A stretch of DNA of 64,000 bases from an uncultured Muribaculaceae bacterium (lineage in GTDB: Bacteria > Bacillota_I > Bacilli_A > RF39 > UBA660), in assembly GCA_964370755.1 (NCBI GenBank), contig CAYJKL010000004.1:1136-65135 (forward strand). The letters run 5' to 3'. The notes beneath the pieces were generated by a model that saw only the letters and a list, made by a program, of their open reading frames with translations, was not told where the DNA came from and searched no databases. The translations under genes and the position numbers were made by a program. Positions 26,106 to 33,647 of this stretch are shown piece by piece. The first letter of the stretch is position 1. Each line of letters starts with the position of its first letter.

Positions 26106-26795
26106 TTAAGGAGTTACTGTTGTACAAAGTTCTGAACCTGTTTCAACGAATTCTAAACTTCCACCAAATGTTTTACCAGCATTTACAGTTTGATCGATTG
26201 CTAAATTATAGTATCTAACATCAAATGTCCAAGTAATACTTGAAGATTCGTTTCCATCAACTGCACCTGTTACTGCAAATGTAATAGGTGTTGCATTAAG
26301 ATTTGTTGGAGTTGCTGTACTTATTGTTCCTAAATCATATTCAGGAATTGTAGTAACTGATGATGTTCCACTACCTACTACATTAGCTGTTGCTTGAATA
26401 GTAAATTCACGTAAACTATTAGTTACAGCTTCTGGAGTTGTTACATAAACACCATCTGCTCTTGGAGTATATACTATATTGTAAGAACAAGTTCTTGTTC
26501 CACCTGCTGCACCAACACTATTTTCTAGTTGAATTGTAGCATCTGTATTGTTTTTGTAAACAGAATGATCATTAGCACCATTACCTTGTACCATGTCAGA
26601 TAGTTGAACTACCATTGTAACGTCAGTTGCTGTAGTACTTGTAACGTCTACTGATCTAGTTTGAACGTTTACCTCACTAGCTTCATTAGTTCCTGACGAT
26701 GCTGTAAAGTATGCAAATGTAGCCCCCACAACTGCAACTAAAAGTGTTGCAACAGCTATAACTGTAAGTAATAACGTATTTTTTTTATCCATCAT
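26106..26795 (-). CDS. Secreted protein with a TasA/camelysin/BsaA-type (SipW-cognate-like) signal peptide, paralog A
   Basis: N-terminus MMDKKNTLLLTVIAVATLLVAVVGATFAYFTASSG. I moved the start to 26795 after GGAGAA. It shares CxYxIVYxP, WTFxVxYYN and FGGSL blocks with 26872..27510. Confidence 0.6.
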   Translation of the reverse strand: MMDKKNTLLLTVIAVATLLVAVVGATFAYFTASSGTNEASEVNVQTRSVDVTSTTATDVTMVVQLSDMVQGNGANDHSVYKNNTDATIQLENSVGAAGGTRTCSYNIVYTPRADGVYVTTPEAVTNSLREFTIQATANVVGSGTSSVTTIPEYDLGTISTATPTNLNATPITFAVTGAVDGNESSSITWTFDVRYYNLAIDQTVNAGKTFGGSLEFVETGSELCTTVTP

Positions 26796-26871
26796 AATTT
26801 TTTCTCCTCTCTCTATTATACATATTATCAAATATTATGATTATTTTCAAGTGTTTTTTTAATTTTTTTTG

Positions 26872-27510
26872 TCAATTTATAGTATTTTCACATTCTAGGT
26901 TTTTTATATTAAGAGAACCACCGAATGTAATGTTCCTATTATCGTCTTGATTAAACGTTTGATTGTAGTATGAAACTGTAAATGTCCAATTTTCAATTAA
27001 CTTTTTGTTTACTCCTGTAACACTTATTTTCGAGTTGTCCACTAATACAAATTCACTTGTAATATCAGCTAGACTTATTTCACTTAATGATTTTCCATTT
27101 CTATCAGATGAACCTTTTATAGTATACTCATTTAATTTTGCGGTATTCATTGCACTAGAATTATATGGAGTTGTTGGAACGTATACAATATCATAGTTAC
27201 ATGATAACGTTCCTCCATCTGCTGTTGTTTCAAGTATTATTCTAACTGGATCAACATTTGTTGCTGTAGCTGCTGGTATGACTGGGTCGATGTTTTCATA
27301 CTTCATTACGTCACCGTCAACTAGTAAATCTATATTACTACCTGATTCTGTGTATGCCACACCAAACTCTCTAGATTGTAGTTTAAAATTAGATAACTCT
27401 CCACTACCTGATGCCGTGAAATACGCATAAGTTGCAGATATAGTACTAATTAATACCGTAATTAGTAAAATGATTGCTAAAAGTATTTTTTTATCTACTT
27501 TCTTCTTCAT
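26872..27510 (-). CDS. Secreted protein with a TasA/camelysin/BsaA-type signal peptide, paralog B
   Basis: N-terminus MKKKVDKKILLAIILLITVLISTISATYAYFTASGSG. Conserved blocks are shared with paralog A. Confidence 0.6.
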   Translation of the reverse strand: MKKKVDKKILLAIILLITVLISTISATYAYFTASGSGELSNFKLQSREFGVAYTESGSNIDLLVDGDVMKYENIDPVIPAATATNVDPVRIILETTADGGTLSCNYDIVYVPTTPYNSSAMNTAKLNEYTIKGSSDRNGKSLSEISLADITSEFVLVDNSKISVTGVNKKLIENWTFTVSYYNQTFNQDDNRNITFGGSLNIKNLECENTIN

Positions 27511-27520
27511 GTTTATCCTC

Positions 27521-28621
27521 CTATTTTATTCTTAATTCTTCTTCAACTAATAAATTTAAAGGTATTTCACTATTTGCTGTTATATTTAATTTATAACTTT
27601 CTGGAATAAGCAATTCTTTACCTTTACTTAATTTTACATCATTTGCACTAATTTGTAAATTATTTATTTCTTTTAATTGTGACAATGTTACACCATATGT
27701 AAAGGCAATGCTATAAATATTATCATTTTCTTTTATAGTATGACTCGTAATAAACTTTTCATATGAAATTGTATTTGAAGAACTTACGAATAAATTAGTA
27801 GTATATTTCATTCCAGTTATGTCTTGAATAGTTACTGGATAAACACCAGGTACTATATCGTTTATTGTAAAGTTTCCAGCGGCATCTATAGTTGTTTTGT
27901 ATGAATCGTTTAAAAAACTAATTGTCCCTTCTGATAATGTTACTCCACTCAAATTTCCATTTAAGTTCGCTGTAGGTTCTGAACTTATTTCACTAATATT
28001 TAGTTTAAGCATTATTTCATCGCTTTTATATTCTTCTGGAATACTTTCATCTAACCAAATTTTAATACTTAATGTTTTAGCATTATCTCCTGATGATGCT
28101 CTATTTATTTCATCTGTAAATACTGAGAACATATTATTATATATGTCAGTTGTATCTGTATATTTAAGTGGTGTTTCACTTAAAGATATAACACTGCTTA
28201 CTTGATTTAATTCCTTATTTACTGTGTCAAACTCGAATACTGCTAACTTTATATATTCTAGTGGTATTAAGTTGTCGCCATCAACGAAGTTTTCTTCATT
28301 TATAAAACTATCATAATCATAACCTACTGATATATTATAAAAATTGTTTACTTTACTATTATTTTGAATATATACTGTGCTTTGTGCTGCGCCTTCAAGG
28401 CCTTCTTCATCTGTCAGCACTTTAATATAATCATTATTTAGTGTTGAGCTACTATCTGAATAATTTACTGTAAGATTACCAATATTAATATCTCGATTTG
28501 CATTATTACTACTTACATCTAAAATTGTTGCGTATGATACGCCTATTGTGGTAAGCGTTAAAACGATAACACACACTGCTATAATCATTGTTTCTTTTTT
28601 AAATTTTTTTATTTTATCCAT
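27521..28621 (-). CDS. Secreted or anchored protein with a related N-terminus, a CarboxypepD_reg-like beta-sandwich and a C-terminal LysM domain
   Basis: N-terminal TM/signal ...TTIGVSYATILD. GNFTINDIVPGVYPVTIQD matches the beta-sandwich. The LysM-like segment is YTIKENDNIYSIAFTYGVTLSQLKEINNL (about 27602-27743). Confidence 0.6.
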   Translation of the reverse strand: MDKIKKFKKETMIIAVCVIVLTLTTIGVSYATILDVSSNNANRDINIGNLTVNYSDSSSTLNNDYIKVLTDEEGLEGAAQSTVYIQNNSKVNNFYNISVGYDYDSFINEENFVDGDNLIPLEYIKLAVFEFDTVNKELNQVSSVISLSETPLKYTDTTDIYNNMFSVFTDEINRASSGDNAKTLSIKIWLDESIPEEYKSDEIMLKLNISEISSEPTANLNGNLSGVTLSEGTISFLNDSYKTTIDAAGNFTINDIVPGVYPVTIQDITGMKYTTNLFVSSSNTISYEKFITSHTIKENDNIYSIAFTYGVTLSQLKEINNLQISANDVKLSKGKELLIPESYKLNITANSEIPLNLLVEEELRIK

Positions 28622-28684: not shown

Positions 28685-28719
28685 AAAAAAAAAAAAAAAA
28701 CACACTTAATTTTGTGTGT
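28685..28719 (-). terminator. Strong rho-independent terminator
   Basis: ACACAC-AAAATTAA-GTGTGT followed by T16 on the minus strand (A16 at 28685-28700 on plus). The 5' arm overlaps the end of the 60-aa ORF. Confidence 0.8.
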
Positions 28720-28888
28720 CTTCATAACTTATATTTTGAAATTCTTCACTAGAGTAATACTCTGCAGTTTCTCTATAATCATTTAACTCTAAATTATTCC
28801 ATATTGGAATAGATATAATTATAAGAGAAGTTGCTACTATTATTTCTAGTATACTTTCTATAATAAGCCCTTTCTTAGCTTTATCCAT
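28706..28888 (-). CDS. Small membrane peptide (60 aa) with a prepilin-like N-terminus
   Basis: MDKAKKG/LIIESILEIIVATSLIIISIPIW plus an acidic tail. It has a near-consensus promoter, a GGGGGA RBS and a strong terminator. Confidence 0.55.
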   Translation of the reverse strand: MDKAKKGLIIESILEIIVATSLIIISIPIWNNLELNDYRETAEYYSSEEFQNISYEDTQN

Positions 28889-28912: not shown

Positions 28913-28941
28913 ATTATAACATATTTGTTACAAAAAGTCAA
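28913..28941 (-). promoter_or_regulatory. Near-consensus sigma-A promoter for the 60-aa gene
   Basis: TTGACT (28936-28941), 17 nt, TGTTATAAT (extended -10; TATAAT at 28913-28918). Confidence 0.6.
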
Positions 28942-29094: not shown

Positions 29095-29140
29095 TTGTGC
29101 AAGTTTATTGCACAAAAAAAGTGATACTTTACATCACTTT
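29095..29140 (-). terminator. Tandem terminator hairpins ending the Wzx/Wzy glycan operon
   Basis: AAAGTGAT-GTAAAGT-ATCACTTT plus a T run, then the TTGTGCAA/TTGCACAA hairpin. Confidence 0.65.
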
Positions 29141-30245
29141 AACATTTAAATTTACTTATTATTGCATCTACGATTTGTTTACTTGCAGTTCCATCTCCGT
29201 ATGGATTTGATGCTTTACTCATACTTGCATACTCTTTTTCATCAGTAAGTAGTTTTTTAGTTTCATTATATATAACATCTGAATCTGTTCCTACTAGTTT
29301 TAGAGTTCCAGCTTTAATTCCCTCTGGTCTTTCAGTTGTATCTCTAAGTACTAATACTGGTTTGCCTAAACTTGGAGCTTCTTCTTGAATACCTCCCGAA
29401 TCAGTTAAAATTATATAAGATTTATTTTGGAAATTATGGAAATCAAATACTTCAAGTGGTTCAATAAGTTTTACTCTATCAGTATTTCCAAATACTTCGT
29501 TTGCTACTTCTCTAACTTTTGGATTTAAATGTATAGGGTAAATTACCTTTACATCTTCAAATTCATCTACTATTTTCTTGATACCTGTAAATATATGTTT
29601 CATTGGCTCACCTAAATTTTCTCTTCTGTGAGCAGTAAGTAGAATCAGTTTTTCATTATCTTTTATCCAATCAAGCTCTGGGTGAGTGTAATTTTCATCT
29701 ACAGTTGTAGCCATTGCGTCTATAGCAGTATTTCCTGTTACGTAAATTATTTCTTCTTTCTTACCTTCATTTAATAAATTTTGTTTACTAAGGTTAGTTG
29801 GTGCGAAATGCATATCTGCAATGCATCCTACCATTTGACGGTTCATTTCTTCTGGAAATGGACTATATTTATCATATGTTCTAAGACCTGCTTCAACGTG
29901 ACCTACCGCAACCTGATTATATAGTGCTGCTACTGCACCAGCAAATGTCGTAGTAGTATCACCATGAACAAGTACTATATCAGGATTTACTTCTTTAATT
30001 ACTCCTTCAAGTCCATTAAGGGCTCTAGTTGTTACATCTGCAAGAGTTTGACCTTGCTTCATTATATTTAAATCATGGTCTGGTGTTATATCAAATGTTT
30101 CTAACACTTGATCAAGCATTTCTCTGTGCTGAGCTGTTACACATACAATACTTTCTATTTCTTTTCTTTTTTCTAGTTCTTTTACTAGAGGAGCCATTTT
30201 AATTGCTTCTGGTCTTGTTCCAAAGACACTCATTACTTTAATCAT
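29139..30245 (-). CDS. wecB: UDP-N-acetylglucosamine 2-epimerase (non-hydrolysing)
   Basis: The N-terminus VFGTRPEAIKMAPLV and the HGDTTT and LTDSGGIQEEAP motifs. Confidence 0.92.
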   Translation of the reverse strand: MIKVMSVFGTRPEAIKMAPLVKELEKRKEIESIVCVTAQHREMLDQVLETFDITPDHDLNIMKQGQTLADVTTRALNGLEGVIKEVNPDIVLVHGDTTTTFAGAVAALYNQVAVGHVEAGLRTYDKYSPFPEEMNRQMVGCIADMHFAPTNLSKQNLLNEGKKEEIIYVTGNTAIDAMATTVDENYTHPELDWIKDNEKLILLTAHRRENLGEPMKHIFTGIKKIVDEFEDVKVIYPIHLNPKVREVANEVFGNTDRVKLIEPLEVFDFHNFQNKSYIILTDSGGIQEEAPSLGKPVLVLRDTTERPEGIKAGTLKLVGTDSDVIYNETKKLLTDEKEYASMSKASNPYGDGTASKQIVDAIISKFKC

Positions 30246-31420
30246 ATCTTACCTTCTTTCTTTATTTTAACTTCTACGTATGGATGTATACATAAAAACT
30301 TTAAAATCTTATTTATTTTTTCATAGTCTTCTTTATTTGTAACTTCAACTATGTTAAACCCGTTTTCCATTCTTGATAAAATTATATCATATATTTTATC
30401 TGTTTTACTAGCAAAATATTTTTTTGCAAATATTCTTATATCTTTTCCTTCATATATAGTATCTTCTATTTTATCTATTTTTATTGTTTCTTTTGAATCA
30501 TGATTTTTGTAAAAAGATAACATGCTTAAATATAATTTATCTTCTTTTTCACTTATTAATTCTTTTAGAATTCCATACACTTTTTCTTTTGGAGTTTTTT
30601 CTTTAATAGCATTTATTTTTATTTTACCTGATAAATTTAGTTTTCTAATTCCTCTTTGTCTTAGTAATCTAAATATTGTTTTTTGAAAATTAAAGTTTTT
30701 AATATGATATTTTCCAAGCAAACTTATAAGGGTTCTTATTTCACCATTAAGTGCACAAAATTTCCCTATATCATTTGATATATAATTAGAATCGTGAATT
30801 CGGTATTTAAGTGCTGGATAATTTACTTTTTTTATATTAGGTAAAATATATGGATTATCCATGTTTATCCAAAAAGGTGTATTCCATGTAAGGTAGTTAT
30901 TTTTTATTTGATTTAAGTAAAATTCTTTTTTATGAACTCCTACATCTCCATATATATTTGCACCTTTATTTAATATTAACTTTGCTGGACTATTTTCATG
31001 TCTACTGAAATTCATAGCAGGCCATAAGCCAGTTATTTCATCTTTCTCATTTATAATAACTAAATCCCCAATAATAGAATCTAACTTTTTGTCTAATTTA
31101 AATTCGTTTACAACTTTATCAAAAAAATCTATACTTGGCACTAAATCATCTGAGTGAAGTATGTATATTAAATCACCAGTGATATGATTTAGTCCATTTA
31201 TTATTGCATTTAATTGGTCTTTATTTTCCTGGTATATGTAACTTATGTCATATTTATTTTCTTTAATAAACTTAGTTATAACTTCTTTTGTGTTATCTGT
31301 AGATCCATCATCCACTATAATCCATTCTATGTTTTTATATGCACTTTTAAAAATAGATTTCCCTGTGTTTATAATAGATGATGCATCATTATATGTTGGT
31401 GTTATAATACTTATTTTCAT
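30242..31420 (-). CDS. Family 2 glycosyltransferase with a C-terminal extension (paralog of 33650..34795)
   Basis: MKISIITPTYNDASS...VDDGSTDNT. The C-terminal LCIHPYVEVK block is shared with the paralog. Confidence 0.85.
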   Translation of the reverse strand: MKISIITPTYNDASSIINTGKSIFKSAYKNIEWIIVDDGSTDNTKEVITKFIKENKYDISYIYQENKDQLNAIINGLNHITGDLIYILHSDDLVPSIDFFDKVVNEFKLDKKLDSIIGDLVIINEKDEITGLWPAMNFSRHENSPAKLILNKGANIYGDVGVHKKEFYLNQIKNNYLTWNTPFWINMDNPYILPNIKKVNYPALKYRIHDSNYISNDIGKFCALNGEIRTLISLLGKYHIKNFNFQKTIFRLLRQRGIRKLNLSGKIKINAIKEKTPKEKVYGILKELISEKEDKLYLSMLSFYKNHDSKETIKIDKIEDTIYEGKDIRIFAKKYFASKTDKIYDIILSRMENGFNIVEVTNKEDYEKINKILKFLCIHPYVEVKIKKEGKI

Positions 31421-31423
31421 TTA

Positions 31424-32926
31424 TTACCTCTTCTTTAATATATTAAATCTTGATGTAAAGTCAAACTGTTTTGTTGCTTTATAAAATATTGTAGTAGCCC
31501 CTACAATCACGAAGAAAAATCCTGCTGAATAACCTAAAAATAATAAAAATGAACTATAGTTAGTTGGTGCTAAGAAGTATATTACAGCTCCAAGTACGCT
31601 TGCAAATATTATATTTTTAAATGCCAGTATGTAGTAATTCTTAGTTTTTTGATTTAATATTTTATTTGTTATTACTCTTGGTTTTACAGCGAAGTCTGCA
31701 ATAATTAGTGAGATAATAGTTGCTAGTAATACTCCAGCAATTCCCATTTCTTGTACTAAAATAATTGATAATCCTAAATTAATTATTATTTCTACAATTA
31801 CGAAGTTTTTAATTAGTTTAAATTTACCTGCTCCAAAAACATATACCTTAAGAGGTAATCTTATTATTTGGTAAAATAAAATAATTGTAAATAAAATACT
31901 AAGAGCATTTGTTACTTCGATTTTACCCTCATACCAAATTGATATAAACTGGTTTATACATACTAAGACACTTAAACTAAGCACTGTGCCTATGTAAAAT
32001 ACAAAGTGATTAAACTCTTTAAATATTTCATAACTTTTTTCTTTGTCAGTTACCATTAAGTTACCTACTGATGCCATTGTTGAACCAGTTATTTTATCTA
32101 TGAAAGTTTTAATACCTTCAACAAAATAATTGTATGTTGTGTATATTACTACTGCAGGCAAGCCTATTACTGTTGATATAATTATTACATCAATATTATT
32201 TGTTAGTAAATTACCTAATGTGTTTACAAATAAATGTTTAACATCTTTAAGCATCGAAAAATCTTTTTTATCTTTGCTTTTGCTTTCAATTTTAACAAGT
32301 TTACTGTACTCTTTTTTATAAAAATAATTAAGTACTATATTTGATAAAATAGAAAATACTACTAAAGATGATACTATTGTTAATAGTCCATTTCCTGTTA
32401 AAACTATTATTATTTCTACTATAGATTTTATTATGTTTGATGTTTGAAAAATAATATTTGGAACATATCTTTTTTGATCCGCTTCAAACATTATTCTTTG
32501 AGGTATTGTTAAATAAAATACTGCTTGACCTATTAAATAAATTATAAATACTAACTGCATATAATGATATTTAAAATCTACATTAGTTATAAATAAATCT
32601 AAGTTATACGAAATTATAATTCCTACTAAAACTATTAGTATTCCTATTACGTTAAATATTGTTCTAGAGGCACTCATTAACGAACTTACTTTTTTACTAT
32701 CTTTTCCTGATAGTGGTTTATATAATCTGTATAATAGTGCGCTTCCCACTCCGCCTTCTAGCAATACTAAGTAAGCTACTATTTGAGCATATAACTGGTA
32801 TAAACCTAAAGCATCTGCACCTAGTAAGTCTATAAAAATTTTTATTTTAAATATACCAAGTATAAATATAATTACTTGAGGAAAAGCATCAGATATAAAG
32901 TTTAACATTACTGTTTTAGTTCTCAA
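31424..32926 (-). CDS. Wzx-type (MOP superfamily) polysaccharide flippase
   Basis: 500 aa with about 14 TM helices and an N-terminal Polysacc_synt-like pattern. Confidence 0.8.
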   Translation of the reverse strand: MRTKTVMLNFISDAFPQVIIFILGIFKIKIFIDLLGADALGLYQLYAQIVAYLVLLEGGVGSALLYRLYKPLSGKDSKKVSSLMSASRTIFNVIGILIVLVGIIISYNLDLFITNVDFKYHYMQLVFIIYLIGQAVFYLTIPQRIMFEADQKRYVPNIIFQTSNIIKSIVEIIIVLTGNGLLTIVSSLVVFSILSNIVLNYFYKKEYSKLVKIESKSKDKKDFSMLKDVKHLFVNTLGNLLTNNIDVIIISTVIGLPAVVIYTTYNYFVEGIKTFIDKITGSTMASVGNLMVTDKEKSYEIFKEFNHFVFYIGTVLSLSVLVCINQFISIWYEGKIEVTNALSILFTIILFYQIIRLPLKVYVFGAGKFKLIKNFVIVEIIINLGLSIILVQEMGIAGVLLATIISLIIADFAVKPRVITNKILNQKTKNYYILAFKNIIFASVLGAVIYFLAPTNYSSFLLFLGYSAGFFFVIVGATTIFYKATKQFDFTSRFNILKKR

Positions 32927-32942
32927 TAGATATTCTCCCTTC

Positions 32943-33647
32943 TTATTTTTTAAATTTATATTTTATGTTTCGATAAAATGAATAAATTGCTATATTTCTT
33001 TTGTTACACATTTTCATTCTTAAAAATTCATGAATTCTATTTTTGAGTGGTGAATTATCAAGCCATGTTCCTAAAAATACATGCACTGTTAGTGAATCTT
33101 TTGACGGGTTACATAAAACTCCTTCTTTGTATACTTTAATTCCAGTATTAAGAAGCTGCTCAATATTTCCTTTTTTACATTTATATTTATCTATTAATAA
33201 TTTAGATACTGATAGAGTATTGTTATCCGAAAACTCAAATTTAATTTCTAAACCATCGTAGTAATCAAGCATATCTTTTATAAACGGATGTTTTTTTTCT
33301 GCACCAAAAACTGCTGTGAATGGATAATCTGGATCTTCATAACCTACAAAGGCTTTGTTATCTAAAAGAGAATCTAGTTTATCTATAACAAAAACATCAG
33401 TGTCTAAATAAATTCCACCTTCATTATAAATTGCCCATGCTCTTACATAATCACTAACAAATGCCCATTTCTTATTTTCATAAGCTTTTTTTACAAATGG
33501 ATGAGAGTTTACATCAAAGTTTTCTTCATTCCACTCTATTATTTCATAATCACTTAAATATTTTTTCCATGTTTTCATACATTTTTCGATTTGCTTAGGC
33601 TTTTTTTTACCACCCATCCATACGTAGTGTATTTTTTTTGGTATCAT
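32943..33647 (-). CDS. GT32-like glycosyltransferase (Gly_transf_sug / capsular synthesis type)
   Basis: IPKKIHYVWMGG, FVSDYVR and GGIYLDTDV (DXD) motifs. Confidence 0.8.
   Translation of the reverse strand: MIPKKIHYVWMGGKKKPKQIEKCMKTWKKYLSDYEIIEWNEENFDVNSHPFVKKAYENKKWAFVSDYVRAWAIYNEGGIYLDTDVFVIDKLDSLLDNKAFVGYEDPDYPFTAVFGAEKKHPFIKDMLDYYDGLEIKFEFSDNNTLSVSKLLIDKYKCKKGNIEQLLNTGIKVYKEGVLCNPSKDSLTVHVFLGTWLDNSPLKNRIHEFLRMKMCNKRNIAIYSFYRNIKYKFKK

Follow-up and report, generated by a model that had tools for sequence, protein, structure and literature searches.

The question raised by the locus studied here is whether three consecutive genes for secreted-type proteins specify a surface structure of the kind built from substrates of the signal peptidase SipW. 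The genes lie on the minus strand of a 64,000-nucleotide stretch (the window) of contig CAYJKL010000004.1, from the genome assembly of an uncultured bacterium (GCA_964370755.1), and are called geneA, geneB and geneC in the order in which they would be transcribed. The original prediction, made from the letters of the window, took them for a TasA/camelysin/BsaA-type fibre or matrix system with two polymerising subunits and a LysM-anchored base. In this study, we report that the module is a real, widely conserved and lineage-specific operon of uncultured small-genome gut Bacilli, and that geneB and geneC represent, in stand-alone form, a ~200-aa acidic beta-sandwich domain that defines a large unnamed family. 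With regard to function, we give an even chance to the reading that the proteins are processed by SipW and form a wall-associated surface structure, in which geneA would be the base and geneB and geneC the minor and the major subunit, respectively. The formation of fibres by these proteins is possible.

The operon and its protein family

The translations of the open reading frames (ORFs) and the family alignment confirmed three successive minus-strand genes carrying the motifs attributed to them. geneB and geneC showed 32% identity (E 3e-15) and their kinship is therefore not due to chance. The motif at the end of the N-terminal hydrophobic helix was GATFAYFTASSG in geneC and SATYAYFTASGSG in geneB, with (T)(F/Y)AYFTAS in both, and the shared blocks CxYxIVYxP, E(F/Y)TI, WTFxVxYYN and FGGSL, as well as the C-terminal Cys, were all found in the two proteins. 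Neither of them matched any Pfam family. In the family alignment, residues M68, C103, E130, N197 and C224 were invariant, the two Cys (C103 and C224) being those of the short subfamily, while E130, N197 and Q202, which are invariant or near-invariant, recurred in the long paralogues described below. T46, in the segment just past the motif, was also conserved. The AlphaFold model of geneC, obtained with 38 sequences (pLDDT 89.6), consisted of a helix (residues 5-29), a coil (residues 30-50, pLDDT 53-73) and a ten-strand beta-sandwich. With a pI of 4.1-4.4 the mature proteins are acidic, and they have a high content of Thr, Ser and Asn. Measured against a crude reference set of ribosomal, EF-G, GAPDH and DnaK genes, the codon adaptation of geneC was at the 79.5th percentile, as compared with the 33rd for geneA and the 5th for geneB, which fits a major role for geneC and a minor one for geneB.

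By its sequence, geneA is a genuine LysM protein predicted to bind the cell wall. The LysM domain assigned to it in the original prediction scored 34.6 bits (Pfam cut-off 20.9), the geneA profile matched LytE and other LysM structures in the PDB, and the gene is conserved beside the paralogues; the domain was detectable in 17 of 32 orthologues. The CarboxypepD_reg-like sandwich fell below the cut-off in the copy of the window (20.1 vs. 32.3 bits) and was matched by 31 of the 32 orthologues (best E 3.7e-14), so that this assignment stands for the orthologous group and is sub-threshold in the window itself. In addition, the geneA profile matched the transthyretin-like domain of NOMO in the PDB (1.5e-14), and the AlphaFold model of a geneA orthologue had a pLDDT of 80-95 for all domains. 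Residues 1 to ~215 gave no family match. The related N-termini claimed for all three genes were found in geneB and geneC, the likeness of geneA being loose: it shares only the N-terminal region with the other two, the profile comparison aligned residues 4-46 only (39% probability), and its N-terminus reads IGVSYATILDV (residues 27-37), with the degenerate motif SYATILDV vs. SYASFF in most orthologues. Judging from this motif, the geneA product of the window may be processed differently, or left uncleaved, in its host organism. The positions just past the motif (T47, G48 and L50) were conserved.

The homologues of geneC numbered 2,277 in a set of 5.8 billion proteins, and an exhaustive search yielded 2,926 cluster representatives of the family at 50% identity. 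No Pfam domain was found among the homologues listed, whose names were either "hypothetical protein" or the automatic JGI name "SipW-like signal peptide", and the family was without a match in Pfam, NCBIfam or the PDB; the best 150 matches of a full-library profile search were all close family members. The family is restricted to metagenome-assembled genomes of gut Bacilli, with record labels including Bacilli bacterium, "Mycoplasma sp. CAG:472/776", uncultured Tenericutes and Candidatus Onthocola, hosts which we take to be an RF39-like lineage. It was present in 65 of 121 sampled genomes of the order, with up to 24 copies each. Genomic context was surveyed in 159 fetched loci. The upstream flank was sufficient in 118 of these, and in 69 of the 118 a geneA orthologue was located directly upstream of an array of one to six family genes; the closest relatives retained the full arrangement, including the flanking epimerase, patatin and YebC genes. 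The geneB-type subfamily was confined to the clade of the window (10 loci, including the window). Tandem arrays of five or six family genes, coding for proteins of 260-300 aa, were observed in the related loci L061:8001-12849, L070 and L040, and they suggest a lineage-specific expansion of the major-subunit type.

Within the genome of the window, the family profile found 20 ORFs, of which three are short (geneB, geneC and a further copy) and 17 are long paralogues. The latter comprise 468-825 aa (one is a truncated ORF of 188 aa) and carry the domain at the N-terminus; in the six that were scanned, the C-terminal parts included DUF285/BspA-like repeats (E 1e-92) and DUF6273. The long paralogues are almost the same over the first ~60 residues and differ in their C-terminal heads, and they look like a variable surface-protein repertoire. 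The N-terminal helix ended in [ST][YF][AGS][YF]F in all 20 paralogues, and neither a C-terminal membrane helix nor an LPXTG-like motif was found in any of them. If the signal is cleaved, the family domain or its N-terminal segment would be the only means by which the adhesin-like proteins among them could be retained on the cell. Of the indirect arguments that the proteins assemble on a partner bound to the cell, for example geneA, this need for retention is the chief one. The genes of the long paralogues are partly clustered, with three on contig C15, three on C29 and two on C50, the others being located elsewhere, including contig C2.

N-terminal signal and signal peptidases

The geneB and geneC N-termini are probably of the SipW-cognate type, as had been proposed, with marginal scores in model TIGR04088 (15-19 bits vs. 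a cut-off of 19). The values were 15.6 bits for geneC and 15.1 for geneB with hmmscan, and 19.1 and 17.1 bits, respectively, in the six-frame search; among 38 family members, 15 were matched at E<=1 (best 3.3e-4). As had been noted, there is no signal peptidase gene in or next to the module, nor was any found on this contig. The search for sipW elsewhere, proposed in the original prediction, revealed six SipW-type genes (TIGR02228) above the cut-off on four other contigs of the 1.2-Mb genome. All six retain the SM.P (Ser) and H motifs, and each sits among other secreted proteins with related N-termini. The genome also encodes one LepB-type peptidase (145.6 bits). Across the surveyed loci, a SipW-type gene lay within the flanks (3-8 kb) in six of 159, all six without geneA. 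The absence of an adjacent sipW, which had been read as a mark of divergence, is thus the norm in this family and is offset by the six genes encoded elsewhere. A strong SipW match was found in all 65 family-positive genomes, and the seven genomes without SipW, among the 121 sampled, all lacked the family.

The N-terminal helix is strongly conserved in the geneC-type proteins. Its 25-27 residues (NTxLLTVIAVATLLVAVVGATFAYF) showed a mean pairwise identity of 86%, while that of the mature domain was 31%, and a gene matching the geneC-type helix pattern was present in 77 of 80 species-level loci. Such conservation is unlike that of ordinary signal peptides. The third codon positions of the helix were approximately random (0.54 identical vs. 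0.49 expected from composition). Synonymous sites being free, selection acts on the helix peptide itself, and an RNA or DNA element beneath the conserved signal was ruled out. The conservation suggests either sequence-specific recognition of the helix within the membrane or a helix that is retained. The geneB-type proteins, geneA and the long paralogues have kept the motif and not the sequence of the helix.

Several of the SipW-type genes of this genome had unusual architectures. The two peptidases encoded on contig C7 (23282-24232 and 26227-27228) carry an extra segment past the catalytic domain and a second membrane helix; this segment resembles the substrate N-termini of their neighbours (ARYISGSLGSDEAKVA vs. 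ARYVATLSGSDAARVA), as if a peptidase and a substrate domain had been fused. The gene on contig C3 (18211-20607) codes for 798 aa with a long acidic cytoplasmic extension, and that on contig C11 (15440-16603) is fused behind a polytopic membrane domain, beside a sortase gene and two secreted paralogues. A link between the family and the secreted proteins of the SipW cluster on C11 was considered and rejected (eight homologues, no PDB match, hhalign probability 4.5%).

Fold, assembly and rival explanations

The kinship with TasA, camelysin and BsaA claimed in the original prediction was not upheld. geneA, geneB and geneC gave no match to PF12389 (Peptidase_M73) at E<=1, and this family was absent from the 25 most-matched families both in 38 family members and in 32 geneA orthologues. 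The family profile retrieved no matches among PDB sequences. The Foldseek search of the geneC model against the PDB gave no match at E<=1e-3, with TM-scores <0.3, and no TasA (5OF1, 8AUR), AbpA, AbpX, CanA or thread structure was among its top 50; the best weak matches were jelly-roll proteins and Ena2A. In addition, no Lys was invariant or near-invariant in the family alignment and no conserved Asn-Lys-Glu triad was found, so that a BsaA-type isopeptide bond is unlikely.

Pairing of the proteins was approached through natural gene fusions, since geneA and the next family gene lie in one frame, with one or a few stop codons between them, in five close relatives and 23 further loci. As a proxy, an AlphaFold2 monomer run was made on the geneA-geneB read-through of L015 (P0122, with one TAG read as Gly), using an alignment of 23 paired read-through rows, 19 geneA singles and five geneB-type singles. 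The geneC-type rows were left out because MAFFT split them over both halves, which would have led to false inter-protein couplings, and a design based on the natural in-frame geneC-geneC read-through of L020 (P0121) was dropped, its second half being two to three sequences deep. In the resulting model all domains were folded (pLDDT 82.9; pTM 0.56), and no strand complementation was seen in this sole structural test, which covers the geneA-geneB pair only; the proposal of two polymerising subunits gained no support from it. Foldseek matches of the model were generic multi-sandwich proteins (sortase pilins, SdrD, RG-lyase) with TM ~0.1 and were uninformative.

Compared with known systems, that of the window would work most like the SipW-linked fibre operons, namely TasA/TapA, BsaA and the AbpX loci with wall anchors. 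With the tapA-sipW-tasA operon of B. subtilis and the sipW-tasA-calY operon of B. cereus it shares a signal of putative SipW-cognate class with a TxAxF-type motif ending the hydrophobic region, a small secreted beta-sandwich as mature domain, a major and a minor paralogue with an accessory or anchoring protein, and SipW-type peptidases in the genome. In contrast, the family of the window lacks PF12389 similarity and detectable fold similarity, sipW lies outside the operon, the accessory protein is a LysM/transthyretin-like one instead of TapA, and adhesin-like heads are attached to the domain in 17 proteins of the genome. The TasA operons are fibre systems, and the module of the window is a possible one. 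The BsaA/BsaB/BsaC-SipW system of Clostridium perfringens (PMC11580942) is similar in its SipW-type signal followed by a disordered N-terminal loop and in its paralogous subunits, of which one polymerises and one does not. BsaA, a remote homologue of TasA, has an isopeptide triad of Asn, Lys and Glu, and its oligomers have been reported to be membrane-anchored (PMC11580942), whereas the family of the window has neither an invariant Lys nor TasA similarity and its conserved partner is a LysM protein. The AbpX-like loci of the TasA superfamily (10.64898/2026.01.04.697558) resemble the module in their acidic subunits (pI ~4), in the aromatic residue at mature position 2 and in the combination of major and minor subunits and tip proteins with wall anchors (SLH or LPXTG there, LysM here). 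They include genes for a 10-TM signal peptidase and for an accessory protein with DUF5305 (10.64898/2026.01.04.697558), both absent from the operon of the window, and the family of the window has no acidic residue at mature position 4. The SAG1386/EF1546 LysM surface proteins (NF042931) showed a weak likeness to the N-terminal hydrophobic region of family members and to the LysM end of geneA; with 18-19 bits vs. a cut-off of 80, these matches are probably compositional and do not indicate membership.

According to the evenly poised reading of a SipW-processed, wall-associated structure, the proteins would be exported by the Sec pathway and cleaved past the third residue of the motif, which is Ala in both geneB and geneC; the enzyme would be one of the six SipW-type peptidases whose genes lie elsewhere in the genome. 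The mature subunits would then be released with a flexible, conserved N-terminal segment of ~20 residues and would stay cell-bound by assembling non-covalently, the LysM protein being their base in the wall; the assembly could be a fibre of the donor-strand type, a short stalk or a coat on the surface. This reading is supported by the size of the family and its conserved operon, by the motif in all 20 anchorless paralogues, by the six SipW-type genes and by the presence of SipW in every family-positive genome. The marginal TIGR04088 matches, the LysM and transthyretin-like domains of geneA, the conserved yet low-confidence coil past the motif, the codon usage and the acidity of the mature proteins also support it. 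Against it, it must be considered that the conservation of the helix is unlike that of a disposable signal peptide and fits a retained or specifically recognised helix equally well or better, and that no relative of the fold could be detected among the known substrates of SipW. No donor-strand insertion was found in the geneA-geneB model, in which both post-motif segments are coil with pLDDT <50. SipW was present in 114 of the 121 genomes of the order, and its co-occurrence with the family is weakly informative because of this near-universality. The residues at -3/-1 (T, A) would also suit the single LepB-type peptidase. Finally, the family was not mentioned in the literature searched, and no studied member is known.

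A more specific version, in which geneB and geneC are TasA/BsaA-like subunits of a donor-strand fibre, geneA is its LysM-anchored base and the long paralogues are tips or side-arms, appears to us unlikely. It would account for the SipW-type signal motif, for the conserved flexible segment past the cleavage site, comparable to residues 28-38 of BsaA (PMC11580942) and to AbpX (10.64898/2026.01.04.697558), for the jelly-roll-like sandwich with its weak Foldseek matches to jelly rolls and Ena2A fibres, for a codon usage that fits major and minor subunits and for the lack of anchors on the long paralogues; AbpX loci, too, pair subunits with wall anchors. However, PF12389 was not among the most-matched families of the 70 proteins scanned and no PDB profile match was obtained, TasA, AbpA and AbpX were missing from the Foldseek top 50 (TM <0.3), the geneA-geneB model lacked strand complementation and the missing Lys makes the isopeptide bond of BsaA unlikely here. 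The predicted mature N-terminus, Y-F-T-A, also lacks the acidic position 4 reported for AbpX. The mature N-terminus of TasA is AFND, likewise with an acidic position 4. The main rival of cleavage and release holds that the helix stays uncleaved, making geneA, geneB, geneC and the 17 long paralogues type-II membrane-anchored proteins with the domain as a membrane-proximal stalk, and that packing of the helices would produce a coat or lattice. We consider it doubtful. In its favour, an identity of 86% in the geneC-type helix, observed over at least 77 species while synonymous sites are free, is what one expects of functional transmembrane helices and not of signal peptides; the hydrophobic stretch, with ~17-20 residues, is a long one; the adhesin-like paralogues have no other anchor; and 23 of 38 members showed weak N-terminal matches to the membrane-anchored SAG1386/EF1546 LysM family. 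It is opposed by the conserved small-x-small motif and Gly helix-breaker, which all 20 paralogues and the geneA orthologues have exactly where the helix ends on its outer side, placed as a peptidase site would be, by the need of six SipW paralogues in a 1.2-Mb genome for substrates and by the redundancy of a LysM domain on a membrane-anchored geneA.

Two simpler readings fare worse. If these were ordinary Sec-secreted soluble proteins, cleaved by the housekeeping LepB-type peptidase and without any role in assembly, their likeness to SipW signals would be incidental; the genome does hold one LepB-type gene (145.6 bits), T-x-A fits the -3/-1 rule and the TIGR04088 scores are at or below the cut-off. 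Nevertheless, the motif has been preserved throughout the family, the 20 paralogues included, the operon partnership with a LysM protein is fixed, the conservation of the sorting signal is extreme and adhesin-like fusions would be pointless on proteins released from the cell, all of which make this explanation quite improbable. A filament built as in type IV pili, with the N-terminal helix retained as its core, would find a parallel in the pattern of conservation, since type IV pilins also combine a near-invariant helix in the major subunit with looser helices in the minor ones. We give it hardly any credence: no prepilin-peptidase site (Gly/Ala at -1, Glu at +5) was present in the alignment, where the N-terminus reads M(E/D)(R/K)KNT-LLLTV..., and the family genes were unlinked to pilus ATPase or platform genes in all 159 loci inspected.

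Layout of the module and meaning for its hosts

The coordinates of the module and its associated elements are provided in Table 1. The start of geneC was set at the ATG at 26795, with AGGAG as ribosome-binding site, and not at the TTG at 26831, on the basis of homologues that begin with MERKNT. Promoter-like matches in this AT-rich DNA were no more frequent than in shuffled sequence (26 found vs. 24 expected), and being at chance frequency they leave the layout as the only evidence. In this regard, the original prediction of an own promoter for each gene does not suit geneB, whose start follows the geneA stop so closely and which is probably co-transcribed and translationally coupled with geneA; for geneC it is plausible, given the site in the spacer. 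geneC is probably the abundant major paralogue with its own promoter-like site. The best such site of the region lies ahead of a small ORF, homologues of which were found directly upstream of geneA in seven related loci (L012-L015, L017, L019 and L020). Its pilin-like KKGLIIES sequence was considered as a prepilin signal and rejected, with the Glu at +4 and the homologue in L020 lacking the Gly. Directly upstream of the module (29139-33647, minus strand), the ORF translations show what are presumably UDP-GlcNAc 2-epimerase-like, GT2, Wzx-like flippase and GT32-like genes. Read from the translations as a wall-glycopolymer gene set, they would place the module at the edge of an envelope-biogenesis region.

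Table 1. Positions in the window of the three genes, their domains and signals, and the elements next to them.
Feature	Position	Strand	Description
geneC	26106-26795	minus	229 aa; putative major paralogue; 21-kDa acidic beta-sandwich; two invariant Cys
geneC signal region	26712-26795	minus	MMDKKNTLLLTVIAVATLLVAVVGATFA/YF (slash, putative cleavage site); strongly conserved sorting signal
Promoter-like site, geneB-geneC spacer (76 nt)	26822-26850	minus	TTGAAA-17-TAATAT with TG extension; consensus match only
geneB	26872-27510	minus	212 aa; putative minor paralogue; start 10 nt past geneA stop; GGAGG ahead
geneB signal region	27424-27510	minus	ends SATYA/YF (slash, putative cleavage site)
geneA	27521-28621	minus	366 aa; N-terminal hydrophobic helix, degenerate SYA motif, ~185-aa beta domain, transthyretin-like CarboxypepD_reg, LysM
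LysM domain of geneA	27602-27742	minus	residues 294-340
CarboxypepD_reg/fn3_3-like beta-sandwich of geneA	27800-27946	minus	residues 226-274
Terminator-like hairpin and long T run	28696-28723	minus	3' of the small ORF
Small ORF	28706-28888	minus	60-aa membrane protein upstream of geneA; fourth module member in the clade of the window
Promoter-like site, small ORF	28913-28941	minus	TTGACT-17-TATAAT with TG extension, 11/12; consensus match only

The uncultured reduced-genome Bacilli in which this family occurs are common in human and animal guts, and their surfaces are undescribed. In the genome of the window the family supplies 20 genes, including most of the DUF285 and DUF6273 adhesin-like proteins examined, and the module looks like its core, with base, minor subunit and major subunit. 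We tentatively put forward, as a rather speculative extension that we would not expect to be right in all its parts, a new surface-display system of small-genome gut Bacilli. The helix with TFAYF would be the sorting signal of a specialised SipW-type peptidase that reads it within the membrane, and the ~200-aa domain would be a universal plug through which geneC, geneB as adaptor and the 17 adhesin-headed paralogues attach to LysM-anchored geneA, forming a filament or stalk of non-TasA type. This reading by the SipW-type enzyme would be comparable to that of exosortase and archaeosortase signals, which takes place at C-termini.

Even if the proteins do not assemble, these results provide a clean definition of a large unannotated family without a Pfam or NCBIfam model. 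If they do assemble, the module would represent a surface structure linked to SipW whose fold does not belong to the TasA superfamily, and a candidate general route for the attachment of adhesins without sortase signals. The conserved helix of the geneC-type proteins would be one of few N-terminal sorting signals that are sequence-specific.

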